Below, one piece after another: positions 1 to 64,000 of a stretch of 64,000 bases of DNA. The stretch lies in assembly GCA_050084515.1 (NCBI GenBank), contig CM114271.1, forward strand, positions 31,496,001-31,560,000, written 5' to 3'. Under the pieces are notes generated by a model. That model had not been told where the DNA came from. It did not search any database and saw only the letters and a list, made by a program, of their open reading frames with translations. The position numbers were made by a program, and so were the translations under genes. This DNA comes from Blasia pusilla (taxonomy: Eukaryota). Each line of letters starts with the position of its first letter. Within the stretch, counting starts at the first letter, position 1.

Positions 1-199
1 GAACCACACTCGATGTTGTGGCTATCATCTCCTGGCGTACCTGCAAAACATCCCAAGAAGTCGAAGGATGTCTCTCCCGATCACCCTTGGTGTGTCGATC
101 TCCTCAAGTATCGCCCCCAACCACTGCCTCATTCGTCTTGGTAGGCATGGGGCTCACCAACGCAACTTTTGTGAACTGTCACATCCTCAAACGACGTTG

Positions 200-2995: not shown

Positions 2996-3074
2996 TAAAA
3001 GACCATAATGGGTAACGTGATAAAAAATGTCGATGTCGATGTCGCTCCTCGGCAACTGCAAATCTCCAAGAGGC

Positions 3075-5919: not shown

Positions 5920-5951
<32 letters not shown>

Positions 5952-6649
5952 CTTTGAGGTATACCACTCCCCTCTCCCAAGCTCTCTCTCCATGATAACC
6001 TATGCTCCCAAGTCAACTCCTTGGCTCTTGACCTGATGTAGGAGGTCAAGGGCCACTTACCAAAAAAATAAAGTCGATCATATACTCAAAATGGTACTTA
6101 CATAAATTAGTAAGTTCCTTAATATGGTTCCAAATAAGCCGAAACGAAGGGGAAACCTGCTCTCTCAGGTTTCTTGGGGCCTCAACAGGTCATCCTCGAC
6201 CTATTGAGCCTGTCCTCCACTACTCGTAAAGGCACTCTACTAGATCTCACCGATATATCCTAAAAGACGTGACAATACCATCCATTTAGTGATTGCGAGA
6301 TGATTGTGTCAAGGTTAGTCAAGTGTTAGACTATGGTGGCTTGGGAGATCCCAAATTTAGGTTAGTTTCACTATGAGGAATACATATTTAGAAACTAGCT
6401 TTTACAACTAATTTTGGTTGTAAATCATAGATTAAGACTAATGACTAGCTTTACAACTAACAATATCTTAATGTCTAAGGACTCGTCGTATTGGATTCCT
6501 AGTTGCATGTAGATACATCATCAATCCTATATGGCATTATGGCCATCCATGACATGGATATTTTAATACTACATAAAGTTGAGTCATCAATTATTATAGG
6601 ACAAGACGGCAATAGTGAGATGATGAGCTGGAGTGTAATAATGTGTAAC

Positions 6650-38459: not shown

Positions 38460-40040
38460 AAATTTTGAAAGGAAGGAAAAATGAGGAAGGGGAGGGAGGA
38501 GAAATTTGAGGAAGGAGGGGAAAGAAAAAGGAAGGAGAGGGAGGAAAAACTAGGATGGAGAGGGAGGAGAAAATTGAGGAAGGAGAGGGAGGGATAAAAA
38601 GGAGGGGGGCGGAGAGGAAATGAGGAGGAAGGAGAGGAAAAAAATGAAGGAAGAAGAGGAAAAAGAAAAGGAAGGAGAAGGAGGAAAAAATAAGGGAGGG
38701 AATGGAGGAAGCAAAAGGAAGGAGAGGGAGGAAAAAAAAAGTGAGGGGGAGGGGGTGAGGAGGGTTTAGATTAGTGAGGGAATGGAGGAAAAATGAAGGG
38801 AGGAGAGGAAAAAATAGAAAAAGGAGAGAACAAAAAGAAAAAGGAGAGAACAAAAAGAAAAAGGAAGGAGAAGGGGGAAAAAATAAGGGAGGGGGGGAGG
38901 GAAAAAATAAGGGAGGGAATGGAGGAAAAAAAGGAAGGAGAGGGCTGAAAAAAAAAGGGAGGGGGAGGGTTTAGATTAGCGAGGGAATGGAGGAAAAATG
39001 AAGGGAGGAGAGGGAGGAAGTAGAGGGGAAAAAGGAAGGAGAGGGAGGAAAGAAAAGGTAGGGGGGGAATAAGGGAGGGAAGGGAGGAAAAAAAGGTATT
39101 GGAGGGAGGAGAATTGAAGGGAGGAGAGGGAGAAAAAAAAAGATTCAACACATGAAAATTAAGATAGGAAAGAGAGGGAAAAAACAGAAGAGAGGGAACG
39201 GCGGAAAAATAAAAGGAAGGAGAGGGAGGAAAAGAAAAGGGAGGGGGGGGGAGGGAAAAAAGAAGGGAGGGGGGGGAGGGAAAAAAGAAGGGAGGGAATG
39301 GAGGAAAAATGAAGGGAGGAGAGGGAGGAAGGAGAGGGAAAAAAGAGGGAGGGGGGGAGGGAAAAAAAGAAGCGAGGGAATGGAGGAAAAATGAAGGGAG
39401 GGAACGGAGGAAAAAGAAAAGGAAGGGGAGGGAGGAAAACGGAGGAAAAAAAAAGGAAGAAGAGGGAGGAATCACAGTCAAGCGGCTATCCAGAGGATTG
39501 CCGCGGGCGTGTGATTAGCCGTCGTCTAGCCAATAGTCGCCAATCCTGAGATTAGAAGCCGTCCGGAGAAGAAAGGAGAGGAAGGAAAAAAATAAGGGAG
39601 GGAAGGGAGGTAAAAAAAGAAGGGAAGGAGAGGATAGGGGAGGGAAAAATAAAGGGAGGAGAGGGAGGAAAGGTTGGCGGCAGTTTAGCAGTTGTGCAGA
39701 GTTAGCCGCCGGGCCTGAAATTAGCAGCCATCTAGAGAATAGCCGTTGGGCGTATGATTAGCAACCGTCCACAGAATAGCTGCCGGGCTTGTGATTAGCA
39801 GCCGTCTAGAGAATAGCCACCGGGCCTGTGATTAGCATCCATCCAGAGAATAGCCGTGGGCTTGTGATTAGCAGCCGTCCACAGATTAGCCGTCGAGCCT
39901 GAGATTAGAAGGCGTTCGGAGAAGGGAGGAGAGGTGGGGAAAAAATAAGGGAGGGAAGGGAGGTAAAGAAAAAGGGAAAGAGTGGAGGGCGGGAGGGGGC
40001 TGGGAGGAAAAAAGATAAGGGGGAGAGGGAGGAAAGGCGT
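38460..40040 (+). repeat. Polypurine (G/A) low-complexity tract
   Basis: Nearly pure G/A on the + strand with recurring GGAAGGAGAGGGAGGAAAA and GAGGGAATGGAGGAAAAATGAAGGGAG units. Confidence 0.9.
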
Positions 40041-40259: not shown

Positions 40260-43200
40260 TTATAAATTATGAGATGCGATATGACATTCTTTCAAAGCTT
40301 CCTCTGCCAAACTAATATAAAATTCTTCTTCCTCTGGGTTCCACTGGGTATCAGTCACAAGTCGTGCCAAGGATATGCCACTATTTGGCTCCTCAAAGTC
40401 TTCAGACTCTTCATTAGATTCAGACTTCCCATGAACAAGAGAAACACTCGGAAATACTGGACTATTTGGTATGGAATTAGAGGCGGTATTACCAAGATCC
40501 ATGGGAGTGGAAACATTCTCCATTATAGACTGCACCAAATTTCCCCCTGATACAACACTACCCTATACATTAAGTTCTTCAGTCGTATCTCTAGTCTCTT
40601 GGGAATATAAACTTTCAACTCCTGAGTAAAGCCTACTATGATTTCCATACTCAGAAAGAAACCGACTTGCATCGGGACATAAGGTATAGGTCTCCCTACA
40701 AGTTGGTCCGCTTGCAGCACTTGGCAAGTTTTCCAATTATGCCCTTGAAGTGCACAATGGCTACAATGTCTTTCAGAAGTGCGATCAATCCTTTACCCAT
40801 TTCAAATCGTTGGTGCCCTACACCCGTTAGGAATACCTAAAGGACCTCGCGGTGGGATATACGCATGTTGGCCACTCCCAACATCATCTTCATTCACTAA
40901 CTCTTCATGTACAGGATAAGAACTCTCTTCACCACCTCCTTGTCCTCTTCGCATCTTGCCACCTCTCCCACCAGGAATGCGCACATAACGATGTCTACCA
41001 TGCCAAACTGCAAGAATGGGAGGTCGAAAATCCCAAGATGGTATTAGTTCGTCACTCTTCACGACCGGTATACTGCTTTTGTAGATCTGCCTTATGAAGT
41101 CATTGGTCCAGATAACATCAAGAAGTTTCTGTGAGTCCATTCCAGTAATGACATCCCAAGCCATTACATGCGTACATGGCCAACAAGTATCTTGGAACTC
41201 TAGGCATGAACAACTGCACTTAGGATGCAAGCGGACATGAAATTGGTGCCTACTAGTTGTGGAAGTGACAAGTGCATTTGTTGCATCTGAGGCTAGTACA
41301 TCAAAACTTTGACAATTGGCTTCATTCTCTCGATAACGAAAAGTGCATAAGTAGTCAGTTTGTTGGAGAACTTCTCCGGGTGACATGCCTCTACTTTTCT
41401 TTCTGCGTAAGTTTTCATCATGTAATTCCATAACTCATGAGCAATGACAAGTGGAGATCCCTCCCTAATAGGTTTGATGGCGGAATTTATGACCTCTACA
41501 AGATTTGAACTCAGTTTGCCATAGCGTGGCAAAGGGAATGCACACCTCGCAAACTTCTCTGGTCCTATCTCTTGTATGTACGAAGCCGCATCAGCTATTT
41601 GTTGAATATGATGCCTTTCCAATTCGTTAATCCACATGTCATACATGGAAAACAAGACCCTCAATTGTCGTTAGCCGCCGCATAACTCTAAATAGCGCAA
41701 CTGAAAAATAATCCGTCATTAGCCACCGTCCTAAAATGATTGGAATTTAGATGCCGATTTAATCCTAAATAGCCTCGGTCCTAACAAGGTATCAAATTAG
41801 CAATCGTCCTAACTGTGAATAGCCTGTAGGGAATAGCAGCCGTCCTAAGTGTGAATAGCCGCCGCCCAATAAGGAATAGCAGCCGTCCTAACTTTGACTA
41901 GCCGCTGTCCTATAGGGAATAGCAGCCGTCCTTACTGTGAATAGCCGCCGTCTTATAGAGAATAGCAGTAAAAAATAGCCGCATCCTATGCAAAATACTA
42001 CCATTGAATATTCAAGACTCACATATGCAAACTGTAAGGAATAATGAAATGGATTGATTGCTTACTTCTCCTTGGTCCCGACATAAAGGCAGGCAGTGAA
42101 AAATTCTTCGGCAACTTTTCCATACCGTGTTGTCTCAAATGTTGGGCACACATGCTATGTATATTCTGGGGGAATATTGTATGCACAACGTGTAAAAGGC
42201 CCTTTAGTCTATCAAAAAAAAAAAACAATTTTGGGATCATTTAAGGCTAGGATGGCTTTCTTCAGATGTGCACAAAACCATTCCCATTCCTCATTGTTCT
42301 CGCAAGGAGATATGCCAAATGCCACAATGATCAAATTGGCATTTCCATCAAATATGGACGCAATGAAAATCTGCATGGGATACTTCCTATTCTTTGTATG
42401 GCATGCATCCAAGCCAACTACCTTTTGCACATAAGGAATGATGTTCTTCACGGCGGATGGACAAATAAATAGCCTCTTGAAGGTGGCAGATTCTAAATCC
42501 CAAACATCCCAAGCGGCGGTGGCAAAGGAGTAGGCTTCCTTTACTTCTTGTTTGAAAGAAGGAATCAAATGGAAACCTGCCCGTTCACCCTCATTCATCC
42601 AATCTCGACATATTTCTTTGCATCTCCACGCAAGAAAGTAAGTTGTTCGCTTCTTGTACGTCTGCAGAAGGACTTCTACAAGGCTACCTACAGGGATGCT
42701 AGGTTGATTTACAACCCTATCTGCTAATACCATTGTTAACCACTTTGCCTTGTGGGTAGGACCCCTCCATGTATGAATGTGCCCCGTACAAGTGTGTTTC
42801 AAATTACACACCGTTATCTCACATAGGCCTGTACTTGTATGCCGTTGGCAACGGACCCTCCACTCGCAAACTTCATCTTTACATGATATGCCATTCCCCT
42901 TCACTGAAAGTATGTACCTAGAAAATTGACCACATGCCCCATTCTTGGCGGTGGGGACTCTCGCTTCGCCGCTCTTTCTCCTTTTCTCCGCGGGAACGTC
43001 TAAGCTTACTCTAGTTTCTGAGAAAGAATTCTTGAAAATTGGCTGGTTAGGCCTCTTACTATGTTGAGGTCACCACTGGACCCCCATTCCGCATGCAAGC
43101 CTCGATATACGTGGGTCTTGAAATTCTTCACTATGTCCCCCATTATCTCCAACCGAGGGTCCACACACATTAACCGCAACTCGGTTGACATTAGCCGCCC

Positions 43201-43430: not shown

Positions 43431-43764
43431 GTGCTACAGGGTTTGTCCTCATTGAAAATAGGGAGACCTTTGGCTCTGATCTTTGCGCCAAATCTACATA
43501 TTCTAAGTCAATACCATTTCTTGCTGCGTGCGCAATGCTTTGCTTTATAATTCAGCGAGCACCAACAATCTAGTGAAAACTCAAACTCGTTGAAGCTGCG
43601 GAACACTTGCTTCAATTGTATCTGCTCGACATGCCTCCTTACTGCACATGATGACCCAAAGGTTGTTAATCAATCTAACTTTTACTACGGCTAATGACTG
43701 CGCCATGCCGATAAAAATCATAAATGCAAACTTACATTGTATCCACCAAATATCCACTACGGTG

Positions 43765-44545
43765 GCTATTGTGAGTAGGCTCACCTCTCAAAAGTACAAA
43801 ACAACTGCAATGACGGCTATTCAGAGTAGGCTCACCTTTCAGGGGTACAAAACAACTGCAACGGCTGCTATTTAGGCGGCTATTCTGAGTAGTATCACCT
43901 CTTAGGAGTACAAAACAACCGCAACGGTAACTATTTTGAGTAAGCTCACCTCTCAGGAGTACAAAACAACTGCAACGGAGGCTACTCTGAGTAGCCTCAC
44001 CTTTCAAGAGTAAAAAATTACTACAACGGCGGCTATTTCGGAGGCTAGTCTAGGTAGGCCAACCTCTCTAAAAAAAAATCTACAACGGCGGCTAATTCGG
44101 CGGCTATTCTGAGTTGGCTCACCTCTCAAAAGAACAAAACAACTACAACGGCGGCTAATTTGGTGGCTATTCTGAGTTGGCTCACCTCTCATGAAAACAA
44201 AACAACTACAACGGCGGCTAATTTGGCGGTTATTCTGAGTAGGCTAAGCTCTAAAGAAAACAAAAAAATTTCAAATGCGGCTAAGTCGACCACTCTTATG
44301 ACTAGGCTCAACTCTCAAGACAACAAAACAACTACAAGGGCAGTTAATTTGGAGGCTATTATGAGTAGGCAACCCTCTCAGGAAAACTACAAAAACTACA
44401 AAGGTAGCTAATTCGGAGGCTATATTGTGAGGAGGCTCAGCTCTCACGAAATCAAAAATACTGCAACGGCGGATATTTTTCCGGCTATTCTGAGAAGGAT
44501 CACCTCTCACGAAACGAAAAATCTACAACGGCGGCTATTTCGATT
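43765..44545. repeat. Subterminal tandem array, ~52-70-bp unit, about 11 copies
   Basis: Recurrent GGCTATTCTGAGTAGGCTCACCTCTCA...AAAACAACT(G/A)CAACGGCG; units are mutually similar with no unique spacers. Confidence 0.9.
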
Positions 44546-48088: not shown

Positions 48089-48418
48089 TGTGACGTCTTT
48101 CAGGATAGATCGGCGAGATCTACTAGAGCGCCTTTGGAGATACTAGAAGATAGCCTCAGGAGGTCAAGGATGACATGTTGAGGCCGCAGGTAACTTGCGA
48201 GAGCAGTTTCCCCTTCGTTTTGGCTCATTTGGAGCCATATTGAGGAACTTACTATTTTGGGTAAGTTATTATTTTTGGTATAGTTGAATTTCTACTTTGG
48301 GAAGTGGCCCTTGACCCGCTACAACACGTCAAGAGCCAAGGAGGTGATCTGCGAGCACATGTTACCGAGGAGAGAGCTTGGGAGAGGGAAGGGGATATAC
48401 CTCCAAGAGAGAGAGAGT
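48089..48418 (+). mobile_element. Copy D, 5' terminal 330 bp (interrupted by copy B)
   Basis: TGTGACGTCTTTCAGGATAGATCGG... is the reverse complement of the copy A terminus (~5945-6274); homology resumes at 63267. Confidence 0.85.
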
Positions 48419-48726
48419 TGTCATGCACATACACATCGCTACACAACATACATCACTGTCACTGAACACACACACAAACACTCACGATCCCATGCTCACT
48501 TATGGCATACAAACAACGAAACAAGAAGTTACAAAATATCTCCAATCGCCCCTCTAGCTAGTGGTTAGGTCTCTCTAACTCCAGATAGCCATCTATCCCT
48601 ACCTACCATGACATACATCTCTCGAACGCTAAGAGCAAGAAGGCCGGGTGCTCGTGTGGCCCCATCGTTAGTCGCCTTCTTGTCATCCATGTCAGAGACA
48701 CAAGTCGGAATGTAGAAGTACCTACT

Positions 48727-51480
48727 CTATGTACATCTAGGACACATCCATCGTCCCTGAGGAACCCTAGTGAGAGGTGGCATCAAACATGCCATATACC
48801 ATCCTCTCGAACATCCATCACAGACTAGCATAGTGGCTGCATCACGGGCTGAACCACACAACATACATCATAAGCATGCAGGAACTATTGCTAAGCTTGG
48901 ATCAACTATCTCGTCAATGTTCGGAAGGTGATACGACGTACAGCTCAATGTATCCCGATGGTGCGCAATTGCCAAGTTCTCAAACGCCATGGGCATCACT
49001 CTCCGAAAAAATTCAGCCCTCTGAGAATATGCTCGTATCCATACATCACGGTCATCAAGGTTCAACACCTCACCAACATCTCGACGAATGGCCGCACGTA
49101 AATCTAGCTCTCGGCCATACAAAAGCAAGTACGGTGAGAAAGACGCTAAGGATGCCCGCCTGATGAATCTATATCCCATCACCAACCATAGATATTGTAG
49201 GTCCCAATCTCCTAGGTGATCTCTCTGCAAGCCATATTTGCGTAGTCCTCTCTTCATCGTCTGCACAACCCGCTCCGCTTGTCCATCTGCCTTAGGATGA
49301 TCCCGCGAAGTAGTGCGATGGTCGATCAGTGCCTGACCACACAAGGCTTGAAACTCCCCATGGAACTATGTACCCTGGTCTGTCAACACCTCAGCTGGTG
49401 CGCCGTAATGACTCAGCACTCGATCTAGGAAGGCATACACTATTCCCTCACTTGCTTTTTCAGGCAATGCAACCAACTCTATCCACTTCGAGAAGTGCTC
49501 GACCATCACCAACACATAACAACTATGGCGCTCCGTCAAAGGCAAAGGTCCTGCAAAATCCAAACTTCATCTATAACCTAAACCCATGATCAGGAGTGGA
49601 TGCAAATGTGGAGTCGGAAAATTGAACAATGCTCAGACTTGATCACACACCATGCTTATGAAAACTAACAACTAAACGTTAGTCTGCATGCCTCGCCACC
49701 AATACTGAATCTGAAGCAAGCTGTACATCCGCTTCACTCCAAAATGAACCAACTCCTCGTGAACATGATGCACCAAACGTGCTCTCTGCGAAGGATGAGG
49801 CACTACATGCACTCTACCATTCTCCCACACTCGCAACACATGTGTCCCCTCCCACCAAAACCGTCTGGCTCGCTGTAGGATCCGATCCCGGTCTCTAGCA
49901 CCCACCGTGCTTGCGACGCTGCCAGTACGCAGGTACTCCAAGATCACTCCATCGTCGTGAATGTCTCGGCCACCTGTGGTCTCCTCACCCGCCTCTAGAT
50001 CTAAGGACTCTCCATCAGACCTCGCCATCAAAGTCTCAGAAATTTGGCTCCCCATAGCCAACAAGCCTAAATAGGCTCACTCTTGGCACCAACTCCTCAT
50101 CACTCTCACCATGCCAACGAGCTCCTGTCGCATCTCGCTGAATCGAGCATGGATTACGGCTCAAACCATCTGCATCCTGGTTTAGCGTCCCAGGTCCATG
50201 CACCACCTGGAAGTCATACTCCTGCAACAAAAGAGCCCACCTTGCAAGCTTCCTTGTAAGCTTGTCGGACTCCATCAATCACTTAAGTGGCTGATGATCA
50301 ATAATGATGGTAAAGGGATTCTTGAATACATAACACATGAAATGTGCGACAGCCCACACTACAGCCAAGCACTCACTCTCATACGAGCTATACTTTGCCT
50401 CTACAACGTTGTTTGAGCGACTAGCATAAGCCACCATGAACTCTCTACCATCATCGTCATGCTGGGTGAGCACGACTCCAAGCCCCAACATGCTCCAATT
50501 GGTATGCAACTGGAAAGAACGCCCCCTGATCGATCTTCTCAATATGGGCGTGGACGTCAATTTTTCCTTGAGCATCTGAAATGCTCTCCTTGTTTCAGTT
50601 CGATTGCGAAGACACTTCTGATCCACCTTGGTCATCAAGGTGAGCGGCTTCGCAATCGAACTGAAACCTTTGACGTACCGTCAATAGAAGTTCGCCAATC
50701 CCATGAATGCACAAACTCGACTCATATCTATAGGGCGTGGAATGCATGAAATAGCCTCTACTTTTGTTTGTTGCACACCAAGGCCTTGAGGGTATATTGT
50801 ATGACCCAAGGACTCAATCTTGTCGTAGAAGAACTTGCACTTTCCTGGATGTAGCTTCAGCCTATGTAACTGCAATCGTCGAAACACCTCCTCTAGATGT
50901 CGCTCATGCTCCTCAACCGTGGTGCTAAAGACTACAATGTCATCAATATAACACCTAGAAAAATCCAGACCTGCCAAGATACTATCCATGATCCTCTCGA
51001 ACTCAGCCGGGGCATTCTTTAACCCGAATGGTAAGAACCGCCACTAGTACAAACAATCCTTCCCGTGAGGATCGATGCCCCAAAATGCCATCTTCTGCGT
51101 GTCCTCTAATATGATATGTAGCTGATGGTATCCGGCTCGCAAATCCAATGAAGTGAAGAAATTTGCATGCCCAATCGCATCAAAGATCTCTTCAAGGGTG
51201 GGCATGGCATACCTATCGGACTTTGTCCGCCGATTGATAGGTCGGTAATCTCCATACATTCTTCTATCCGTCTAGTTGTCATGCACATCCTTCTTGGCGG
51301 GCATGACAGTGGCAGATGCATACTCTCCATGCGACATCTCCACTACTCTTGCGCCAACCAAGTCTTGGCTCCTACTCTAAATCAGAGCTTTCTCCATGTC
51401 ACTATACCTGTAGGGTCGTCGAAAGATCGGCGTGTCACTCGATAACTCAATGCGGATCCATGGACCCTTCAGCGTACCTA
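48727..51480 (-). pseudogene. RT-RNase H-integrase-PHD of copy B (degraded)
   Basis: DYRPIN, LDLRAGYHQ, YIDDIVV (RT); LHTNWS, YASRS (RNase H); DFAGPLP, VLTDQGT, ADGQAERVVQT (IN); CMLC...CDGC...WYMAC...WMCPRC (PHD, 48730-48867, His changed to Tyr). Confidence 0.92.
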
Positions 51481-51884
51481 AATCATGCATACTAAATGCA
51501 AAAAACTCCTATAACTCCTAAGGAATTGGTGTATCCGGCGCAACTCTCCTTCGTCAACTTAGGGTTCATATCTGGCTCCCAAGTCTCCATCGTGACTACG
51601 GTAGGACTCTCCGGCGCGGGTGTGAGTGGTTGCTATGGTGCAACCCCGTCTCGGACAACAAAACTCTCATCTCCACGTGCAGTACCCGGAACCACACTCA
51701 ATGCTATGGCTATCATCTCCTGTCATACCTGCAAAACATCCCAAGAAGTCTAAGGATGTCTCTCCCGATCACCCTTGGTGTGTCGATCTCCTTGGATCTC
51801 ACCCCCAGCCATTGTCTCAACCGTCTCAGTAGGCATGGGGCTAACCAATGCAACATCTATGATCTGTTGCATCCTCAAACGACG

Positions 51885-52835
51885 TTACTCATCTGCGCCT
51901 AAGCTTAAAATCCATGTCAAGCAGTTCAGGTCCATTGCCTGACCCAAGCAATGACGTCGCGATGCTTCTGATAGTGATGGTACTGCCGTTACTCCTGTGG
52001 AAAATCCCATCGCTTGCTCTCGCTCATCGACATTGGGCTCCACCAACCTCTTTATCTGGTCATCCCAAACCAAGCGAGGTCCGCCCTCCTTGAATGCATA
52101 GGAAGCGGGAAAACTTATGAATGTGGGAAAGGCTGCCCGTGGCATGCCAATCCTGTTGACCATAGTCAACGGCTGTCGATCATAATGCCTCACTGCCTGT
52201 GATCGACGACATGGATCTAGAATAGAATCCACCAACAAATCAGAGGGGCACTCCACTCTAGCATACGCCCTCTGCAAGACCTCATGTAGGACCAAGTTAG
52301 TCCACCACATGCAAATGCGCGCGGTGTGCTCTAGAATCTACACTTGACGCATCCAAAAACACTGCCGGGCCGATCCATGCGTGCACCTGATGTGCACTTG
52401 TCACCACGTGGGACCTCAAATCGTCCAAAATTGGCACATTCTCCAGAATGTATGTTGGAGAACGAGATTGAAGCTCCTGCAAGTGTCGCAAAATCCGCAT
52501 CATCTCCCAAAACAACTTCGACCGAGAGTCAGCTAATCCGCTACCCGGTCCAGCACTCGACTGGCCCTGACATGGCCAACCAGCAATGACCAAGTCTATG
52601 GTCCCTACCCGCTCCAAGTCCTTTGCCCCCACCAATGAAATGCCCCTCGGTAGGGAACTCTGGTAATCCTGAATGGCGGACGCAGACAACAAGTCGGGAA
52701 AACGAAGGCGTAACTGTGCCACATGGTGAAGTGAAGGGCATCTTGCAACATCATCAATCTCCACATACAAGTACTGCTGCACGCGCACTCCAGCCTGCAA
52801 AATAGCAGCTAACCCTTGGATGCACCACGCAATCG
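51885..52835 (-). pseudogene. DNMT3-like methyltransferase domain of copy B
   Basis: YVEIDD (motif II), DLVIAGWPCQG (catalytic PC), ILENV (motif VI), SRAHRA, WWTNL, EREQAMGF...RRHCLGQAMDL. Motif I is lost by a short deletion relative to A and C. Confidence 0.9.
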
Positions 52836-53379
52836 GGGTGGTGTCCAAAGGGGTCATAGCAACACTCCTGGCTACCTGGGGTTCTTTTGACCCATCACAC
52901 TCTAGTGCAAACGTCTCACTCCACGCGGTCTGCACATGCTCAATGGCTGAGCGTCAAAGCTCCTCAGTCGAGCCCAAAAGTGGCCTCTCTCTTCCATGGA
53001 CTGATGCGGCTACCATGACACTCCTCTCCATGGAAATGTCACAAACGGGAGTATCCTCTGCATGGACATGTCCCTCAATCAAATCACTAGCCCAAGTGAT
53101 GGCACTGCTAAATGCTGCTAAGGTCGCCATCTCTCCTCGTCGTCGCTCGATCACTGCACCTGTGAATCAAACGGGTAATAAGCTAAGGTGCCCATCACCT
53201 GGTCTGTATGATGCTGAATCCTCCCAGTAATCCAGGAAAAACCCCATCGGGTATAACACTGCTCCACCAACCAAGACGTTGTACGACTCTACATCAGTCA
53301 CTATCGCCTAGGGGACTCATCTGTAGGATGTCCCGAGCGAATCCTCACCACGACCTCCTCTCGTGTGATATACTGTGTG

Positions 53380-55797
53380 GTACTCACTACACCCAAGGAT
53401 GTCTGTATCCACAATGGACAACGCTCCACATCGGCTCTCGTCAAGCTCAATCCTCTGAATGACGCTTTCCCCAACATCAAGGGTCCAACAAGACGCGCTG
53501 CGAACTAAAAGCTCTACCTTCTAGACTCACCAACTGGAAAACCTATCCCCAGTTATCCAGTAACACAACACGAGGAGAAGCCATGGTACGCTCTATCGTG
53601 GGTCTAGCAGACATCTCCACCATCCTAACAGCCGCAGCCTGCCATGAATCTGACGTGGACGGCCTGAGCATCCGCTCCAAGGGCAGGTCCATCACCTCCT
53701 CTGCAATCACCTATGAACGTGATGCAAGAACTCCAACTTCACGCTCACATAGCATAGCGTCCAGCCGAAACACCTTAGCGGGCGTACCTCCCAATGTCAT
53801 AACATCAGAAGCAAAAAATAGCGGAGCACGGTACACCATTGTGGCCGCCCCCAACATCATATTCGACACATGCTCCTCCTGAGCATCAACAATAGGAGTC
53901 ATCGCACTCATTTATTCCATTCTCCTCCGTGCCTGCACACCAATAACATCATAAACTCTTCGGGAACTCTGATCAAGACCCGTCGATGGGGTCCTCATCG
54001 CCTCGGACAATGTCAAAGACTGAGGAAGCCTAGACTATTTCTTAGCTTCCCCTCGTTGTGGATCCAACTATGCCACTGCTCCATGCGTCACAACAGCGGG
54101 GGCCTCCATCTGGACAACCCCGCACATCCAACTAAGATCCTCCATATCTCTGGCTGCTCCATATGATGTCGATGCCACGGATCCGGCATCGGGTAATCTC
54201 AATGCCATAGTTGCAATCTGATCTTGTAGCTGCTGTATTTGAGCAGCCATCCCAGCCTCACGCCCGGAATCTCCCTCGATGCGTCTAGGGATTGGAACTC
54301 TACCTCCTCCACGGGCAGCTCCACCACCCTGTCGGGCAGCTCTAGCTCCTTGCCCCCCAATAGAACCACTTGGTGCACGATCTCTAGGCCCACCCCAACC
54401 GGCTAGTCGCTCTGGTGCCCTCTCTGGCCCTCGGTCCGGAGTAACTCAGGGTGTAAGCTGAAACACCTCGCGCATGTATGACCATACCTTTGATAATAGT
54501 CACATTGATAACCTCTTGGTGCAGCACCATCTCCTCCTCCATGCTGAGGCACACGTCCATGACCCTGACGAGTGCAATCACATAGATTATGGGTTCCATC
54601 ACATGACCAACAAGTAATCATAGGCGGCTGCTGCTGAGCTGCATATGAAGACACAAGTCTTTGTGGCACGGCCTCTTGGTATCCTCCCTGAGCTCGTGGT
54701 GCCACATTCAACCTATCTCGGAGTCCACGTTGCTACACTCGTGGTGCAGACACGATTGTCTGCACCACCAGTGCAGCAACCCGATAGTGATCCACCGTAC
54801 ATATTGATTGGTCCTATCACTTGGGCGTACGAGATGGACGACCGGGCTAGAGGACTGCGTAGGTTTTTGGGTGCTCTAGGCACTATAGAGCTACATGACT
54901 TCATTTCCGAGTTTAGGAGTTGGTGTGACTCACAGCGGGCTAGGAAATGTAGAGAGTTCAACCCGTTTACAACATGGAACGGTATGTTCCAGCATGTAGA
55001 GGGGGCGCCCATGGACGATTACCATAAGTTCTCCCACAGATATGCCCAAGAGATTGAGGCATGGCGACTCTACTATGACCCACACTATATGTCATGGACG
55101 GAGCCGTTCCTTGATGAGGAGGTGGAGTCAGGAGAGGCTACTTCCTCTTCCACTAGTGATGTTTTAGGAGGGGTCACTCGCACTGGAGCAATTGCACCAT
55201 CTGGTCGGGTTTGTCCCAGGTTCAACCCCGTGGTTGATTTCTTCTTCCAGGAGAGGAAGTAGCCTCTCCTGACTCCTCCTCCTCATCAAGGAACGGCTCC
55301 GTCCATGACATATAGTGTGGGTCATAGTAGAGTCGCCATGCCTCAATCTCTTGGGCATATCTGTGGGAGAACTTATGGTAATCGTCCATGGGCGCCCCCT
55401 CTACATGCTGGAACATACCGTTCCATGTTGTAAACGGGTTGAACTCTCTACATTTCCTAGCCCGCTGTGAGTCACACCAACTCCTAAACTCGGAAATGAA
55501 GTCATGTAGCTCTATAGTGCCTAGAGCACCCAAAAACCTACGCAGTCCTCTAGCCCGGTCGTCCATCTCGTACGCCCAAGTGATAGGACCACTCAATATG
55601 TACGGTGGATCACTACCACACTCCTCTACACGCTCCCCCTGGTCTAAAGACGACATAGAAGGAGATGAAGGTGGTCTCTCACGTGGATACCTTCGAAACC
55701 TCGTACCACTCCTGGTAAACCCTCCAAAGCTACTCTCAGGTCCACTATCTCGCCTCTCAAAATCCCGAAAGGACGCCGTGATGGGCCTCGTGCCCAT
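53380..55797 (-). pseudogene. Gag and protease region of copy B (rearranged)
   Basis: ORF 55222..55797 is gag N-terminus-like; knuckles CWSCDGTHNLCDC and CDYYQRYGHTCARC (54403..54711); protease region has a small deletion at the active-site motif. Confidence 0.7.
54785..55615. repeat. 364-bp inverted duplication within gag of copy B (103-bp spacer)
   Basis: 54785-55148 is the reverse complement of 55252-55615. ORFs 54645..55262(+) and 55222..55797(-) share a ~120-aa stretch with 2 differences. Confidence 0.95.
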
Positions 55798-57499
55798 CTC
55801 ACATGATCACTCTCAATCTCGAAAGTAATCCCTCAATCACTAAAACTAAATTTGCGGCACTCAATTTACACTCTCTTACCGAGACATGTGCTGTGCGGCA
55901 ACAAGCGGCGTGGTGTGGCAATCGGCTATCATCCTATCATCTCATGAAAAAGACATACCCTCAACTCTGGACATCCCACACAAATCTATGTCCCCTTAAT
56001 CCATACATCAATGATGCTCTAAGCATCTGCACGAAACCCAATATCCTCAAATAACTGCCAAATACCCGTAATTCCCTCACACTTGCAGGGTAAGAGACCA
56101 GAATGGGTAACCTGACAATAATGTGGATGTCGCTCCTCAAAAACTACAATCTCTACCCCAACTCGGTCGCGAAAACAACTCCTCCAATCAGCAAGTCGTA
56201 CTTCTCTCGTACTGAGACTCCTCAAACCTCCTCGATGCGCGGTGCAGGTCTAGCGGTCCGGTGCGGCACTGGCGGCACGGAATGGCTATAAACGGCACGG
56301 CACTCGGGAATGGGGTGCGGAACTCGGCAACATGCCCTCCTCAATCAGAAATTCACACGCCCTGCTCCTAAGTGAAGGAACGGCTCCGCGATCGAGATGG
56401 TGCGGTGCGGCAATCAGCGGCACATTGCGGCTACGGATGTCACGACAGAGTACTCGATCGTCGTCGAGCGGCTACCAATCACAACATATTAGCATGAAAT
56501 GAAAACTCAAACACCATAACCCGAGGTCACCTATCATCAGTGGTTGATGACGAAAATTTGATGACGGTGGCGGCCAAAAAATATGAGGTGGTGGTGCAAG
56601 TCAGAGAATTAACAGTTGTCGTGGAAGATCCTCCACTCTGTAATGGCGGCAATGGCAACCAAGGGTGGACAACGGCCGAACCTGGCTTTGAGTAGTGTTA
56701 GGCACCGGCGGTAGCCGATAGTGGACGGTGGACGGTGGACCGTTGATGTTTACTATGAAGGCGATGGCCGGCGGCGGCTTGGCGGGTGGTTTAGGGTTTG
56801 AACAATTTAACCCTAAAAATCGCTTAGCAATGGCAGTTTTTCAAGATTGACTATAAATTTTTGCTCGCAACTCCAAATTGTGCAGCGTCTATTGCACAAG
56901 GTGCAAAATTTGACGATCTACGACAATATCAAAAAATATTTTAAATTGGACATTCCAATAAAAACTGACAGGGATTGTCGTAAAGCCCAACGTCTCTTTC
57001 TCATACATAAAATCGTTGGAAGAAATTAGCGCGGAAGCGCTGATTTCTCCCAAAAAAAGTCTAAAACCTATGGGAGCAAATCAGCAAGCTACATGGTGCT
57101 CCCGAAAGCATCGGCATAGAGCAATCCGCCCCCATACTCAATTCCTATAAAAAATTGGGCAGCGCTTCCGCGTGCCACTCTCATGTACAAAAAATCAGCA
57201 AAACAAAACAACAAACTGGCTCGGTTCTTGCTCTGGTGAGCACTCCCATGAACCATGAAGCGGTAAACACGGTCCCCCAACCTGCACCAAACATCGAGCA
57301 ACCAGCGAGCTCCCCCATGAAGCTCTCTCACTCACTCATTCTCTCTTTGTAAAATAGATCCAATCTCTCTCATGTCACATCTGAGTAGCCGATAGGCCGA
57401 GATCTATCGTGGATAGGGCGTAGGAGCCAGCGGACTATCTTGAGTGTAACTTTGTCCCACAGTGTCGGATGAGGTTGAGGATAGGTCCATTGTGTCAAG

Positions 57500-57871
57500 A
57501 ACGTCGTTTCAGACGACTTTCATATTGAGGTCTTTTACAGCCGGGTGACTTGTTGACCAAGTCACCTGCCCTTGGTAACCTATGCGCGCAGTTACCAAGG
57601 GAAGGGCTATTCTTAGGGTAAGAGCCTTTTGGCTCTTCCCAACCTATATAAGAGAGGAAGATGGCTTTCCTAAGCCATCTTTCTCATGTTGGGCCGTTGG
57701 AGCACCTCCCTTGTATGTGTGTGAGCTAGGATTAGGGTGCTAGCGTCTGGATTCCTTGATAGCACAGGGTGGACGAGGCTCGATATGCTGATGTAGATTG
57801 AGGAGTGGAGTTTTAGGCCGGGTGTGCCGTTTTTACTATTCTTTATTTCTAGGTCAGGTGACGGTCGGATG
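57500..57871 (+). promoter_or_regulatory. Structured leader of copy C: four hairpins, TATA box, candidate leader intron and ATG
   Basis: Hairpins 57544-57566, 57569-57601, 57620-57637, 57658-57681; TATATAA 57645-57651; polypyrimidine tract plus AG at 57851-57852; in-frame ATG at 57869. Confidence 0.5.
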
Positions 57872-58249
57872 AGTCAGTTATCCGTGCAGTTTGCGGGACG
57901 AGGTGGTCGATCACGAGGCGAGTCTGTGACCACGTTGGCGGCTTTCACAGGTAGTGTTAGCTGGCCAGGAGAGTTGTTGGAGGGGAACGCACATGCGGAG
58001 GATGTCCCAGTAGCGGATAGTCCCACGGAGAGACAGGCCATGGCGGGTGTCTCTTCCCATGTTAGCGATGCCTCTTCACCATTATGGGGTACGACTCGAG
58101 AGCTACAGAGAAGTGCCGACGACCTCGTGAGGCAGGCGTGGAGTCATGTTTTTATCCCAGAGCAGCGAGAGTCACGTGGCGATCGGGCTCTTGGAATGGA
58201 GACGATGACTCCACTAGATATCACACCTGTTGTGTGGCAGTTCCCAGAG

Positions 58250-59200
58250 GAGGGTGTTAGATCTCTTCGGAGGGATTAGCACCGGATTGGCGGCCATATT
58301 GCAGGCGGGCATACGGGTGCATCAGTACCTTTATGTGGAGAGAGATGAGACCCAAGCAGTATCATTACGTCACGTGGCGAGATTGGTCCGAGGTATCCTG
58401 AGTTGTTGTTGGTATCTGCGAAGACGGGATACCAAAGATACACTACCCGCCGACATATCTTTGGTGGGGCGCAGGATCTGGATAGAGTTGGCACCATTCA
58501 TTTGGTGATTGCTTTGGATGGCCATGTCGGGTCATTCATCGGTGGCCGAGGATTTGGATTGCAGGATCCGAGGTCGGGATGTTTTGGGAGATCTTTGCGA
58601 GTAGTACGACACTTGCAGGAGAGTCGATATATTCTCCAAAGATACATTTTGGAGAACGTGCCGTTGTTGGGCGATACTCGTGCACGTGTGATGACGAGTG
58701 TACATCGGTGAGTCTGGTTGGGGGACCATTTGTGTTGTTAGATGCAGCGAGAGTTGGGTCACGTGCCCATCGCCCACGCATCGTGGTGGACAAACCTGAT
58801 GCCATCAGAAGTACCGAGTCGAGCCTATAGTGGAGTTCAGAGAGCACCACATCTCACAGTGGATGCTATTTTGGACTCAGGGCGTCGATCTCAGGTGGTG
58901 ACACGCGATGATAGACCACCGTTGGCCACGGCCAATAGGGTGGGGAGTTGAGGGAAGCCTTACCACGTTGGTGAGCTTCCCAAAGATCCCATGCCTTTCG
59001 CCGGGAGGGCAGGCATGATTTGGGATGAGGTGACCGGAGTATTGGAGGAGCCTACAGTAGATGAGCGCGAGCGCGCCATGGGGTTCACTACCGGTACTAC
59101 GGCGGTGCCAGGGATAATTGAGGCATCACAGAGATAGGTGTTGGGGCAGGCGATGGACCTCAACTGTCTCACATGGATAGTCAGCCTAGGTATGGCTGAG
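58250..59200 (+). pseudogene. DNMT3-like methyltransferase domain of copy C
   Basis: Motif I RVLDLFGG (ORF 58230..58508), GGATGGCCATGT (GWPC) at ~58516, ILENV (ORF 58403..58711), AHRPR/WWTNL, ERERAMGF...LGQAMDL. Confidence 0.88.
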
Positions 59201-62200
59201 CAGAGACGGATGCGAGTGTCATCCATGCCGTCACGTCCACGAGTTGGACCACCGCCTCTGTGGTCAGATAGGCATTGGCTAGGGGCGAGACGAGGAGAGA
59301 TAGGCACCCATGGACTTCCTGGGACGTCGTTCGAGCAGAGAGTGCGAAGGCGGCTAGAGTAGCACATGTTCATTTTTCGGATGTGGAGCATGGTGTAGGA
59401 GGTCGAGTGGAGTGGTGTTATGAGGTGGCTAGGGTTGCTACATAGCAACCAAAGCCGGAGGTTGCGTCCTCTCCGAGTGAGGTCACGATGGAGACTTGGG
59501 AGCCTGTGATAGGTCTCAAGTTGATAGGAGGAGAGCGACGGCGAGTTCATAGGTTTCTGAGAGGGCATGTTAGTTGTTTTGCCTTCAAGATGAGAGACTT
59601 GGACGCACGCTGAAGGGTCTCGGATACTAATTGAGTTGGCTAGTGATACGCCGATCTTTTCGTCGACCCTACTGGTATTCTCATATGGAGCGAGCCTTGA
59701 TTCGGAGCAGGAGTCAAGACTTGTTGGAGGCAGGACTTGTGGAGTTATCACATGGGGAGTATGCATCTGCCACAGTCATGCCGGCAAAGAAGGATATGTA
59801 TGGCAATTGGATGGATAGGCGGATGTGTGGAGATTACCGTCCTATCAACCGATAGACGAGGTCGATCGGTATGCCATGCCTACTCTCGAGGAGATCTTTG
59901 ATGCGGTAGGGCATGCAAAGATCTTGAGACTTTAGATCTCCCGTCTTTGGCTATCATCGCCTTCCTATCAGGTTGGAGGATGGGAGAAGACAACATTCGG
60001 GGATAGATCGGTTCTCGAGAGATTGCTTGTATCGATGGCGGTTCTTACCATTTGGGTTGAAGAACGCTGCATGGAGTTTCGTAGAGATCGATGGATAGGA
60101 TTCAGGTGGCTTGGATTTTGTACGATGTTATATAGATGATATTCTTATCTTGATTCCACGGTTGAGGAGCATGAGCGACACTTGAGGAGGTGTTTCGGCG
60201 ATTGCAGTTACATGGACTGAAGTTACATCCAGCAAGTGCAGATTCTTTCAGAGCAGATTGAGTACTTGGGACACACCATATACCCGAGTGGGTTAGGCGT
60301 TCAGACGAAGGTAGAGGCTATTTGCAGATTCCACGCCCTCTGGATGTGAGTCGAGTCCGAGCATTTCTTGGATCGTAACTTCTATCGACGGTATGTCAAG
60401 GGTTTTAGTGCGATCGCAAAGTCTTTGACCTTGTTGACGAGACTTGATCAGGTGTGGTTGTGGGGAGATGATCAGGAGCGAGCATTTCAGGAGCTCAAGG
60501 ACATGTTGACGTCCTCACCCATTTTACAGAGACCGGTTAGGGGTCGCCCATTCCAGTTACATACGGATTGGAGCATGTTGGGTCTAGGAGCAGTGCTTAC
60601 TCAGAGGGATGACGAGGAGAGGGAGTTCGTTGTGGCTTACGCGAGTCGATCGAACAACATTGCAGAGGCAAAGTACAGCTCCTACGAGGGAGAGTGCTTG
60701 GCTGCAGTGTGGGCCGTGGCACATTTTAGGTGCTATTTATTTGGCAACCCTTTCACACTTATCACTGATCATCAGCCGTTGAAGTGGTTGATGGAGTCCG
60801 ACAAGCTTACGGGAAAGCTTGCCAAGTGGGCTCTATTACTACAGGAGTATGAGTTTGAGGTGGTTCATAGGCCAGGTTGGCTGAACCAAGATGCGGATGG
60901 GTTGAGTCGTAACCCATGTCCGAGTCAGAGAGACGTCACGGGAGCTCGATGGCACGGAGAGAGTGATGAGGAGATGGTGCCCGGTTGGCATGCATCTGCC
61001 TATCTTTGTTGGTTGACTATGGCAGGTCAGCCACAGATGATGACTCCAGTGGTGGGATTGGATGATGAGTCTTTGGATCCGGAGGTTAGTGAGGAGGCGA
61101 CAGGTGGTCGTGATATCCATGACGACGTGGAGGTTGTGGACTTCTTGCGCACTGGCGTCATTGCGAGTACAGTGAGTGCTAGGGAGCGGGATCGGATCCT
61201 ACAGAGAGCCAAGAGGTTCAGGTGGGAGGGGACTCACATTTTGCGGGTATGGGGAGATGGTAGGATACGAGTGGTACCTCATCCTTCCCAGCGAGCACGT
61301 GTAGTGCGACATGCCCATGAGGAGTTGGGACATTTCGAGTAAAGCGCATTTACGAGCCTTACTCTAGGTTCAGTATTGGTGGCGCGGCATGCATACTGGG
61401 GTACAGCAGTTTGTGGCCAGATGTATGGTATGTGACAGAGTGCGAGCATCCTTCAATGCTCCCACTCCGCAGTTACATCCTTTGCCGATTATGGGTTTAG
61501 GTTATCGGTGGAGTTTAGACTTTGCGGGACCTTTGCCATTGACAGGGCGTCATCATAGGTACGTGTTGGTCATGGTGGAGCATTTCTCCAAGTGGATAGA
61601 GTTGGTGGCACTACCAGACAAGGCGAGCGAGGGAACAACTTATGCGTTTCTAGATCGTGTGCTTAGTCACTTTGGTGCACCGGCGGAGGTGTTGACCACT
61701 GTGGTACCGAGTTCAGGGGAGAGTTTCAGGCTTTGTGTGATCAGGCGTTGATAGATCACCGCACCACGTCCAGGGATCATCCTGAGGCGGATGGATTGGC
61801 GGAGAGAGTGGTACAGACGGTGAAGAGAGGATTGCGCAAGTATGGCTTGCAGCGGGGACAGTTGAGGGAGTGGGACCTACAGTTGCCATGGTTGGCTATG
61901 GATTATCGCTTTAGTCGGAAGGCATCCTTGGCGTCATTTTCACCGTACTTTTTGCTCTTTGGGAGAGAGCCAGATTTACCTGCAGCGATTCGACATGACA
62001 TGGCGGAGGTGTTAGATCTTGATGATCCAGATGTGTGGGTGCAAGCATGTTCTCAGAGGGCAGAAGTTTTTTGTAGAGTTATGCCTATGGCCTTTGAGAA
62101 CTTAGCTATTGCCCAGCATAGAGATACATTGAGGTACGCGACCATAAGTGGAGGAGGTTATCGTCCAGGGATTAAGAGGTTTCATCCTGGAGATTACGTG

Positions 62201-62413
62201 TATTTACAGCAAGCGGCACCCACGACGCTAGATGTCACTGCAGGGCGCACTATCCTACGTGTGCGCGAGGTATTATGGACCGGAGTCCTCATGTTGGAGG
62301 GACGAGATGGTATGGTTTGGAAGGATCATGTGCGCAATTGTGCACCATGTCATCTTCCGAACGTAGATGGGACGGTGGATCCAAGCTTGGCAGTGGTACC
62401 TGCAGGCTTGAGG

Positions 62414-62551
62414 TGTATGTTGTGCGGATCTGCGAGGGGTGCAGCCACCATGTTGGTATGTGATGGTTGTTCTCGAGGGTGGCATATGTCATGTCTGACC
62501 CCCCCTCTTGATGTGGTTCCCACGGGACGATGGATGTGTCCGAGATGTGTA
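62414..62551 (+). other. PHD finger (C4HC3) fused to the integrase C-terminus
   Basis: CMLCGSARGAATMLVCDGCSRGWHMSCLTPPLDVVPTGRWMCPRC; all eight ligands present and in frame with the integrase core (ORF 61733..62554). Confidence 0.95.
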
Positions 62552-63266
62552 TAGGGTAGTAGGTCATGTCAGAGAGATGTGATATTTTCTATCTGGAGTT
62601 AGGGGGATCCACCTGCCAGCTAGGGGGGCGGTTGTGTGATCTCCATGTATATGTATGAGTTCATTTTTGTACATGTGTGGATCGACCTGTGTGTGGGGAA
62701 GATCAGTGTTGTGTGGTGTAGATGTGACGAGCGATGTATGTTGTGTAGCGATATGTATGCGCACGACACTCACAACACCATAGTTCTCACATGTGTGCAC
62801 TCTCACATGTCTCTCTCAATGTCAAACCAAACCCACTCTCCTAATGAGAGGCTTGGGTTACACACACAAGGCAAGCAAGACCATAGCTCCGCCGCCTCAT
62901 GCCAAGAGGTTCAACAAAGAGAGAATGAGCTCTCAAGCTCTCTCTCCTTGAGGTATACCCCTCCCCTCTCTCAAGCTCTCTCCATCGTAACCTATGCTCC
63001 CAAGTCACCTCCTTGGCTCTTGACATGATGTAGGAGGTCAAGGGACACTTACCAAAATTAGAAAGTTGATCATACACTTAAAATGATATTTATCTTAAAT
63101 AGTAAGTTCCTCTATATGGCTCCAAATGAGTCGAAACGAAGGGAAAACGTGCTCTCTCAAGTTTCCCGGGGCCTCAGTAGGTCATCCTCAACCTCCCGAG
63201 TCTGTCCTCCACTACTCACAAAGACGCTCTACAAGATCTCACCGATCTATCTTAAAAGACGTAACG

Positions 63267-64000
63267 GCTCATTCTCTCTTTGTTGAACCTCTTAGCATAA
63301 GGAGGCGGAGCTATGGTCCTCCTTGCCTTATGTGTGGAATCCAAGCCTCTCATTAAGAGAGTGGGTTTGGTTTGACACGAGAGAGAGTGCACACCATGGA
63401 GAGCTTGGTATGAGAGCTTGTTGGTGTTGATGAGAGATTCCACTGAGAAAATGAGTGAGTGAGAGAGCTTCAATGGAGGAGCTCGCTAGTCACTCGCTAT
63501 TGGTGCACGTTGGGGACCATGTTCCCCACTCAGCGGCTCAAGGGAGTGCTCATTGGAGCAAGAGCCGCTCGATCTTGCTGTTTTCATCGCCAATTTTTCG
63601 TGTGAGAGAGTGGCACGCGGAAGCGTTGCAAAAATTTGGTTGGCAATTGAGTATGGGGGCGGTTTTCCCCACGCTCTTGGGAGCACCTTGTAGCTTGGTG
63701 GTTGTTGTGTTTATAGGTTTGCAATTTCTGTTGGGAGAAATCAGGGCGGAAGCGCTGCCAAATTTCTTGTAGGATAGCAGATATATTAAAGGGCTCTACC
63801 ATACTCCTTGTCAATTTTTATTGGAAGGTCCGATTGAAAAGAAATTTTGGATGTTTTCGTAGATCGTAAAGCTGTGCAGTGCACGCTGTGCAATTTGGAG
63901 CTATGAGCAAAAAGTTATGACCAATTTTGCAAACTGCCAATTTTTAGGGTAAAAATTGTCAAACGCTATACCAGCTGTTGCCGTCACTGTCATCGCCGTC
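63267..64000 (+). mobile_element. Copy D continued (5' leader; runs off the right edge)
   Basis: Reverse complement of copy A ~5920 back to ~5150; resumes where 48418 stopped. Confidence 0.85.

Follow-up and report, generated by a model that had tools for sequence, protein, structure and literature searches.

A 64 kb stretch of the Blasia pusilla genome (assembly GCA_050084515.1, contig CM114271.1, positions 31,496,001 to 31,560,000; hereafter the window, numbered from its first base) contains four copies, A to D, of a single retroelement family. They belong to a Ty3/Gypsy lineage whose Pol includes a Dnmt3-type methyltransferase and whose integrase is followed by a PHD finger. Copies begin with one segment (segment A, starting TGTC) and end with another (segment B, ending GACA), and fuller copies among their relatives have the organization A1-primer-binding site-coding-polypurine tract-B1-xy-A2-B2, in which xy is a 2 nt spacer. 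A polypurine tract (PPT) in front of segment B and a primer-binding site (PBS) behind segment A should together delimit an ordinary long terminal repeat (LTR) of the form B-xy-A; copies nevertheless begin at A and end at B, so that the LTR expected from reverse transcription differs from the unit of insertion. We give slightly better than even chances to a scenario in which the integrase uses an internal palindromic site, where B meets A, and the termini of the cDNA are joined to each other at the A|B junction. The first-pass annotation of the window had proposed a non-canonical life cycle, and the finding that the insertion boundaries lie inside the LTR predicted from the reverse-transcription signals bears this out.

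Ends and target duplications of the window copies

The layout of the window was established by self-BLAST and by direct reading of the sequence. Both ends of element C are fixed, as had been recognized at first pass, by CTCA on either side and by the uninterrupted site in element A; the 5' end is TGTCACATCTGAG (starting TGTCAC) and the 3' end is GCGCACGACA (ending CACGACA). Element A provides uninterrupted sites for the insertions of both C and B, and self-BLAST shows the flanks of C to be collinear with it (A 4838-5764 corresponds to 56451-57372, and A 5761-6273 to 62769-63265).

Features of the four elements (window coordinates):
57373-62768, plus strand: element C, 5396 bp, a single-unit A-coding-B copy with broken frames; gag not detected
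57369-57372: left CTCA target duplication of C; right copy at 62769-62772; uninterrupted in element A at 5757-5764
57373-57849, plus strand: segment A of C, about 477 nt; its end is fixed by read joints 57848 to 62630 and 57833 to 62631
57645-57652, plus strand: TATA-like TATATAAG in segment A of C
58284-59190, plus strand: degraded Dnmt3-like region of C, homologous to 51898-52815 in B
59482-62554, plus strand: reverse transcriptase, RNase H, integrase (H2C2, rve) and PHD finger of C; stop codon 62552-62554, frameshift near 61667-61751
62620-62630, plus strand: PPT of C, CTAGGGGGGCG, directly 5' of its segment B; read joints land at 62630/62631
62631-62768, plus strand: segment B of C, 138 nt, ending GACA, with the last 30-39 nt kept across subfamilies
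48419-57372, minus strand: 3' and central part of element B, a single-unit copy carrying the nested C
48419-48547, minus strand: segment B of B
48548-48558, minus strand: PPT of B, CTAGAGGGGCG
about 48722-51900, minus strand: PHD finger, integrase, RNase H and reverse transcriptase of B
51885-52953, minus strand: methyltransferase of B
about 54400-55806, minus strand: gag region of B
57335-57350, minus strand: PBS of B, ACAAAGAGAGAATGAG, 16 nt
57351-57372, minus strand: end of segment A of B
62769-63266, minus strand: first 498 nt of segment A of B
62914-62929, minus strand: primer-like CTCATTCTCTCTTTGT of B
about 62954-62958, minus strand: TATA-like TATAC of B
48089-48417, plus strand: first 329 nt of segment A of element D, inside which B is nested
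63267-64000, plus strand: continuation of D, extending past the window end; inverted match to element A at 5182-5920
1-6274, minus strand: element A, a B-type copy with its 5' end (TGTCAC) at 6274 and its 3' part before the window start

The reported absence of LTRs from B and C holds: window self-BLAST (E<=1e-10, at least 80 bp) reveals no direct repeat joining the ends of C, or those of B once the nested C is taken out. A check at smaller scale within C gives 13 direct-repeat families, the longest being 27 nt at 74%, which is the chance level, and neither short LTRs nor split repeats were found in this element. The 3' ends of B and C are alike, their last 36-45 nt matching at 92%, and the 5' part of B matches A and D. 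The PPT-like tracts lie where they had been placed, and the distance from the pol stop to the terminus is 214 bp in C and about 305 bp in B. The claim of TGTC...GACA ends with a 4 bp target duplication is correct for C; B lacks a clean duplication, with GAGC and ACTC at its flanks, and its first bases have mutated to CGTTAC from TGTCAC. Among the 12 elements with both ends visible, the duplication is perfect in eight, agrees at three of four bases in two, and shows no match in two; the target sites vary among elements.

Coding content and affiliation

Reading frames are broken in all of the window copies, as judged from the list of open reading frames (ORFs). Pfam identifies RVT_1, RT_RNaseH, Integrase_H2C2, rve and a C-terminal PHD in window ORFs, and DNA_methylase (PF00145) in element B, upstream of the reverse transcriptase (RT). 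The ORFs of C itself give no Pfam methylase match, the B counterpart of the degraded region being the one that does, and no Pfam family was found for the gag-like ORFs. The best named protein matches are to the liverworts Calypogeia, Riccia and Marchantia, at 60-73% identity, which points to a liverwort-like plant as the probable host. A near-intact relative in metagenome data, L021, has two long frames, in which Pfam finds protease (PR) and methyltransferase (DNMT), followed by RT, RNase H (RH), H2C2, rve and PHD, with the methyltransferase between PR and RT. Its RT, RH, PR and gag-like frames are still open, and the solved chains that best match its DNMT are those of DNMT3A, DNMT3B and DNMT3C. 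The domain order PR-RT-RNase H-integrase (H2C2 and rve), the TG...CA ends and the short duplication of fixed length are all those of Ty3/Gypsy elements.

Split repeats in metagenome relatives

Relatives were sought by scanning metagenome contigs with an RNase H alignment, which returned 599 candidate stretches, of which 517 were confirmed and 80 loci (L numbers) were kept; the 44 longer loci were self-BLASTed for repeat layout. Nineteen of these 44 have the pattern A1...B1-A2-B2 and the other 25 show no repeat. Conventional direct LTRs on most copies had been named at first pass as the observation that would contradict its reading; an LTR-coding-LTR arrangement occurs in 0 of the 44 loci and in neither B nor C of the window, and no segment B start preceded by flanking sequence was found among the loci examined. 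In L032, for example, A1 (1676-2017) is followed by B1 (10238-10350), A2 (10350-10691, 92%) and B2 (10693-10805, 94%). Across full copies A1 and A2 are 85-94% identical and B1 and B2 82-95%, and segment A, at 290-520 nt, is 2-4 times longer than B. The split repeats extend to a distant subfamily (L050, L058 and L078) with RNase H identity of 42-45%, in which the methyltransferase is also present (including in L058).

The last 30-39 nt of segment B are conserved between elements B and C and their metagenome relatives. A Hamming scan, which recovers copies that blastn-short and fuzzy-regex scans missed, collected 29 copies of this B-end motif, with TGTC two bases further on in nine of them and unrelated flank next to the other 20. 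The order of the segments has a polarity, as seen in two sets of loci: wherever segment A borders on flank at its start, the primer site comes after it (8 of 8 and 6 of 6), and wherever an evaluable segment A has B in front of it, another B comes after it (7 of 7 and 9 of 9). Segment B starts occur 39 times after a PPT and 17 times after the end of an A (four rows having been reclassified by eye).

This A1-B1-A2-B2 order is that of PAT, Ngaro and VIPER elements (PMC4157794, in its description of these repeats), and the likeness was remarked on for KnitGypsy-Dnmt3 by de Mendoza et al. 2018 (PMC5890265, in a figure legend). A DIRS-, PAT- or Ngaro-type cycle, in which insertion of circular cDNA falls to a tyrosine recombinase that escaped the searches, would account for the order, and we regard it as extremely improbable. 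A search for Phage_integrase gives no match in the 22 ORFs scanned, L021 has no spare coding room for an additional gene, and an H2C2-rve integrase is present. The ends are of TG..CA type and are accompanied by 4 bp duplications; tyrosine recombinase elements are not known to make target-site duplications.

The single-unit architecture of B and C recurs, with matching duplications, in the independent metagenome contigs L005, L016 and L019, which bears on the prospect that the LTR-less ends are artefacts of collapsed or misjoined repeats. The window is a region of nested repeats, the 364 nt inverted duplication in B (see below) is possibly such an artefact, and among the pieces listed there is no contig spanning the four window junctions. 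The independent contigs nonetheless make misassembly unlikely, the flanks of C are collinear with element A, and the sequence is present in two DNA runs from different studies; we give this explanation hardly any credence.

Two further observations concern the distant subfamily. The end of its segment B consists of 2-3 tandem 15 nt units, each ending ACGACA (L056 at 12324 and 12793, L058 at 12324 and 12798, L059, L060, L063, L070 and L076), resembling repeated integrase-binding sites. At the start of its segment A there is an inverted self-copy about 50 nt downstream (L050 at 2721 and 2771, L051, L053, L056, L066 and L078), a potential hairpin next to the insertion end.

Reverse-transcription signals at the segment boundaries

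In each of the 16 loci examined, a G-run PPT lies directly 5' of B1, and the sequence in front of B2 is the T-rich end of A. The spacer between the GACA at the end of B1 and the TGTC at the start of A2 is GC in ten cases, AC in three, GT in two and AT in one (n=16); with GC the B1-A2 site is a 10 bp palindrome. This joint is inherited among copies, unlike the A2|B2 joint, which is variable.

The predicted primer site is of a different kind from one that pairs with tRNA. A perfect complement of an inner stretch of segment A lies directly after A1, and this inner stretch has its start 29-32 nt downstream of a TATA-like box. The complement is 16 nt long in L032, 12 nt in L078 and L051, 11 nt in L050, and 10 nt in L026 and L044; in L019 it is shifted and 13 nt long. 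A complement of 10-16 nt adjoining the A end is present in 7 of 11 loci and in element B, in which CTCATTCTCTCTTTGT (62914-62929) is complementary to ACAAAGAGAGAATGAG (57335-57350) over 16 nt. The geometry is common to three subfamilies with unrelated sequences, and L039 has matching changes in both partners. Minus-strand synthesis in Tf1 is primed by the 5' end of the RNA itself, and the layout here fits self-priming of this type from a predicted RNA 5' end; it would also account for why no tRNA-type primer site was seen. A PBS next to U5, predicted to be of the self-priming type, and a PPT next to U3 are the positions expected of a Ty3/Gypsy element.

The outer ends of the predicted LTR lack TG and CA and appear only when joined together as A2|B2. 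This joint carries a 19 nt insertion in L024 and differs by small indels among close relatives, the latter being variation that end-joining would give. In L051 (12631-12660) the end of A2 is joined to the last ~29 nt of B, so that about 150 nt of B2 is gone while a perfect CCAC duplication is kept; this looks like a deletion made while the A|B joint formed.

These signals bear on the suggestion, made at first pass, of an intermediate between Gypsy and Ginger-type elements, and on a related scheme of a Ginger-like DNA transposon. In the latter the elements move as DNA, with the TGTC...GACA ends handled by the Gypsy-type integrase in the role of a Ginger-like transposase, and the RT is vestigial or serves another step. 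The window copies lack LTRs, the abutted ends with a 2 nt spacer recall IS3/IS911 circle junctions, and the TGTNR-type ends with 4 bp duplications are as described for Ginger (PMC2836005, in the account of its termini). The PPT and the self-priming site nevertheless lie exactly at the start of B and the end of A in three subfamilies, with matching changes, and the RT, RNase H, PR and gag-like frames remain open in L021. The spacer is inherited, mostly as GC, and not taken from the flank, the A|B joint corresponds to the predicted cDNA termini, and the terminal inverted repeats (TIRs) measure about 7 bp, where those of Ginger measure 40-270 bp. Movement as DNA is very unlikely in our judgment, and with the RT signals intact, inverted termini of only ~7 bp and PR-DNMT-RT-RH-IN-PHD (IN, integrase) all encoded, the Ginger affiliation is not upheld. 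Nor do the elements lack LTR-type replication: relatives and the source organism carry A-coding-B-xy-A-B, and the PPT and self-priming sites are conventional in their logic.

Junctions in reads of the source organism

Two DNA runs from different studies (Logan contigs, X1 and X2) and two RNA runs labelled with the same species were compared with 56500-63900. The joint 62768 to 57373, from the C-type B end to the A start with GC or GT between, is present in two contigs of X1 and five of X2, and in 9 and 5 reads of the two RNA runs. A B end joined to an A start of the type of elements A, B and D, on the opposite strand and with AT between (using a loose-end consensus), is found in three X2 contigs and in 27 and 64 RNA reads. 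Transcripts thus span the B-xy-A junction. The joints 57848 to 62630 and 57833 to 62631, from A end to B start, occur in six contigs and 10 RNA reads and land exactly behind the PPT. Together the read joints set the limits of segment A (57373-57849) and segment B (62631-62768) of C.

We also note that RNA coverage of the B-type A segments (62675-63168, minus sense) is 48-100x, compared to 2-12x on the adjoining 5' leader, and that summed DNA contig depth over A segments is 10-100x that of neighbouring internal sequence, although this depth is not a copy number. The high coverage hints at many extra A-containing units in the genome, perhaps solo A-B.

A model for insertion through an internal site

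The scenario that we favor, of insertion through the internal palindrome, can be set out as follows. Transcription would start at a promoter in A1 and end at a poly(A) site in A2, giving an RNA with all that is needed to rebuild the LTR. The 5' end of this RNA would prime the minus strand, as in Tf1, and the PPT would prime the plus strand, giving a cDNA of the form [B-xy-A]-coding-[B-xy-A]. The integrase would then engage the abutted A start and B end at the palindrome GACA-xy-TGTC of the upstream LTR, inserting them 4 bp apart, and the cDNA termini would be sealed together, whether in a 2-LTR circle that precedes insertion or once insertion has taken place; the outcome would be equivalent to opening a 2-LTR circle. 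The inserted product would be A-coding-B-xy-A-B, which could again be transcribed into a complete genomic RNA. Single-unit copies such as B and C could arise if both LTR palindromes were used, if a 1-LTR circle were opened, or through later loss of xy-A2-B2 by recombination between B1 and B2. Lacking a 3' R region, a single-unit copy should be unable to replicate again. Speculatively, the choice of only the upstream palindrome could follow from a plus-strand discontinuity at the B end, the conserved motif there serving as a second origin of that strand.

The last of these routes to single-unit copies can be taken further, with A-coding-B-xy-A-B as the sole primary product and all single-unit copies having lost xy-A2-B2 when B1 and B2 underwent unequal recombination or slippage, much as solo LTRs form. 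B1 and B2 are direct repeats of 115-180 nt about 455 nt apart, the divergence of the old full copies (A1/A2 and B1/B2 identities as above) implies that there has been time for deletion, and a deletion of this kind keeps the target duplication, as in C. The A-segment depth, with the same caution as to copy number, fits frequent recombination products. Against this, single-unit copies make up nearly half of the 3' ends (39 B starts after a PPT, 17 after an A end), and solo terminal units, which the first-pass annotation had recommended looking for, are absent: there is no A-B solo among the 14 flank-preceded A copies of the metagenome loci. The sequences contain nothing that separates deleted from primary single-unit copies. 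We place this history only a little short of an even chance; it would alter the origin of the window copies and leave the mechanism of the family as it stands.

A different variant has the 2-LTR circle opened at either palindrome at random, with the resulting A-B-xy-A-coding-B isomer collapsing to A-coding-B faster than its counterpart because the A repeats are longer than the B repeats. No means of telling two identical palindromes apart is then needed, and with A 2-4 times longer than B many single-unit copies are accounted for. The isomer was sought in the metagenome loci and was not found, giving 0 isomers to at least 14 distinct full copies, and a 3-4-fold faster decay should have left several. 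Random opening is accordingly a doubtful alternative.

Several points weigh against insertion through the internal site, or limit what can be drawn from it. We infer from the sequence that the integrase cuts internally and chooses only the upstream palindrome, and the transcription start in A1 and the poly(A) site in A2 are likewise predicted positions. The conserved B-end motif is not purine-rich. Read joints cannot separate chromosomal A-coding-B-A-B copies from tandem or circular DNA, and the read pile-ups (beginning at 63204, 63225 and 57484, and ending at 57650) lie off the predicted starts, with 5-13 molecules each and ambiguous direction; they could represent a different R region. Element B and L063 lack a matching duplication. 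The self-priming complement is only 8 nt in C (57561-57568 and 57855-57862), for which about 0.4 are expected by chance, and it is not used as evidence here; L005 and L016 have no complement of at least 8 nt, and L058 has one of only 8 nt. The number of 15 nt units differs between B1 and B2 within L056 and within L058. Finally, the same insertion was recovered from different samples (L049, L050 and L055; L032 and L033; L039 and L040; L019 and L067), so independent counts are smaller than the row counts.

A broader reading, which we advance tentatively and with somewhat less than even confidence, is that an old streptophyte Gypsy-DNMT3 clade integrates obligatorily through a palindromic, circle-junction-like att site inside the LTR, each new copy being a circular permutation of the cDNA in which the two original termini have become joined.

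Other features of the window

Both nested insertions in the window (B in D at 48417/48419, and C in B at 57372/57373) lie inside the segment A of another member and in the opposite orientation to it. B is inserted between the TATA-like box and the primer-like stretch of D, and C lies 22 nt before the primer-binding site of B. With n=2, these positions may reflect targeting by the PHD finger of the integrase.

The gag-like region of B contains an inverted duplication (54785-55148 and 55252-55615) of 364 nt with 99% complementarity, the two arms of which encode an identical peptide; this may be a genuine palindromic rearrangement or else an artefact of assembly. Tandem duplications in the 5' leader and gag of element A (3674-4238/4241-4805, 86%; 3066-3212/3533-3676, 82%) are not present in B. 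Elsewhere in the window there is a purine-only, low-complexity array at 38470-39443, which is GGA/GAA-rich with periods of 24-82 nt, a GC skew of 0.48 and an AT skew of 0.53. Satellite-like arrays at 39685-39923, 41823-41968 and 43764-44542 have periods of 37/74, 43 and 63/114 nt, respectively, and have in common a TAGCAGCCGTC...AATAGCCGCCG core, partly on the opposite strand; the three are possibly parts of one unclassified repeat family.

Comparison with known systems

The closest published relative in organization is KnitGypsy-Dnmt3 from the alga Klebsormidium nitens; a Dnmt3-like C5 methyltransferase is embedded in its Gypsy-type Pol, and the legend of Fig. 4c of that report describes repeats arranged as in DIRS (A-coding-B-A-B) with Gypsy-like domains (PMC5890265). 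Both the methyltransferase-bearing Gypsy lineage and its DIRS-like repeats are therefore already in print, as far as that description goes, and 'streptophytes (Gypsy-DNMT3)' are named again in a preprint passage (bioRxiv 10.64898/2026.05.21.726589). Set beside the published description, the family described here has in common with it the Dnmt3-type domain inside Pol and, in relatives and in junction reads, A-coding-B-A-B; it differs in that KnitGypsy-Dnmt3 was described from K. nitens whereas the best matches here are from liverworts, and in that window elements B and C are without A2-B2. Beyond the 2018 legend, our literature search, with supplements, subscription journals and Repbase Reports outside it, found no account of the positions of the PPT and self-priming site, a palindromic internal insertion site with a 2 nt spacer, the 4 bp duplications, A|B as joined cDNA termini, or single-unit copies.

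Elements of the Tf1/sushi type of Ty3/Gypsy resemble this family in PR-RT-RH-IN, H2C2 and rve, TG...CA ends, the 4 bp duplication and the PPT before a U3-like segment, and also, as predicted here, in an RNA 5' end complementary to a site next to U5. Canonical Ty3/Gypsy elements differ from it, since here no copy has the predicted LTR at both ends and the insertion boundaries lie inside that LTR. Split direct repeats A1-B1-A2-B2 have been defined for PAT, Ngaro and VIPER elements, with the inner pair downstream of the coding region (in the part of PMC4157794 that defines them). PAT, Ngaro, VIPER and TOC1-type elements share these repeats with the present family, which in contrast has no tyrosine recombinase and instead has a DDE integrase, TG...CA ends and 4 bp duplications.

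Ginger1 and Ginger2 are described as having a Gypsy-like integrase, TGTNR termini, 4 bp duplications and TIRs of 40-270 bp, and as lacking RT, gag and PR; Ginger1 targets CCGG, and some Ginger1 transposases have a PHD finger (Bao et al. 2010, PMC2836005, in the sections on these features). The integrase, the termini, the duplication and the PHD finger (of some Ginger1) are thus points of likeness, and the ~7 bp TIR, the complete set of retrotransposon genes and the varied target sites are points of difference.

The 2-LTR circle junction of retroviruses arises from the outer LTR ends and is a dead end, and circle junctions of IS3 and IS911 consist of abutted ends; an abutted-end substrate was once proposed for retroviruses too. 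As in such junctions, two integrase-type ends abut here as a palindrome with a short spacer (GACA-xy-TGTC). What sets the family apart from retroviruses is the location of the palindrome, which is internal to the LTR and has an RNA template; the A|B joint is where the outer ends meet.

Significance

The anatomy of these elements separates the LTR set by the primers of reverse transcription from the ends set by the integrase, two things that normally coincide, and it offers a concrete and testable route to split direct repeats, a pattern so far linked with tyrosine recombinase elements. If the att site does lie inside the LTR, this would be a retroelement whose DDE integrase works on abutted ends in the manner of IS3-family circles, and DIRS-like split direct repeats would follow from the position at which the recombinase cuts an LTR-type cDNA. 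Action of the integrase on an internal site of abutted ends would also bear on integrase substrate choice and on the links among IS3-like transposases, Ginger and retroviral integrases. Annotation tools that depend on matching terminal repeats will overlook this whole methyltransferase-carrying clade in the genomes of bryophytes and charophytes, or will set its element limits wrongly. Single-unit copies like B and C of the window would be dead on arrival, which matters for estimates of the activity of the family.

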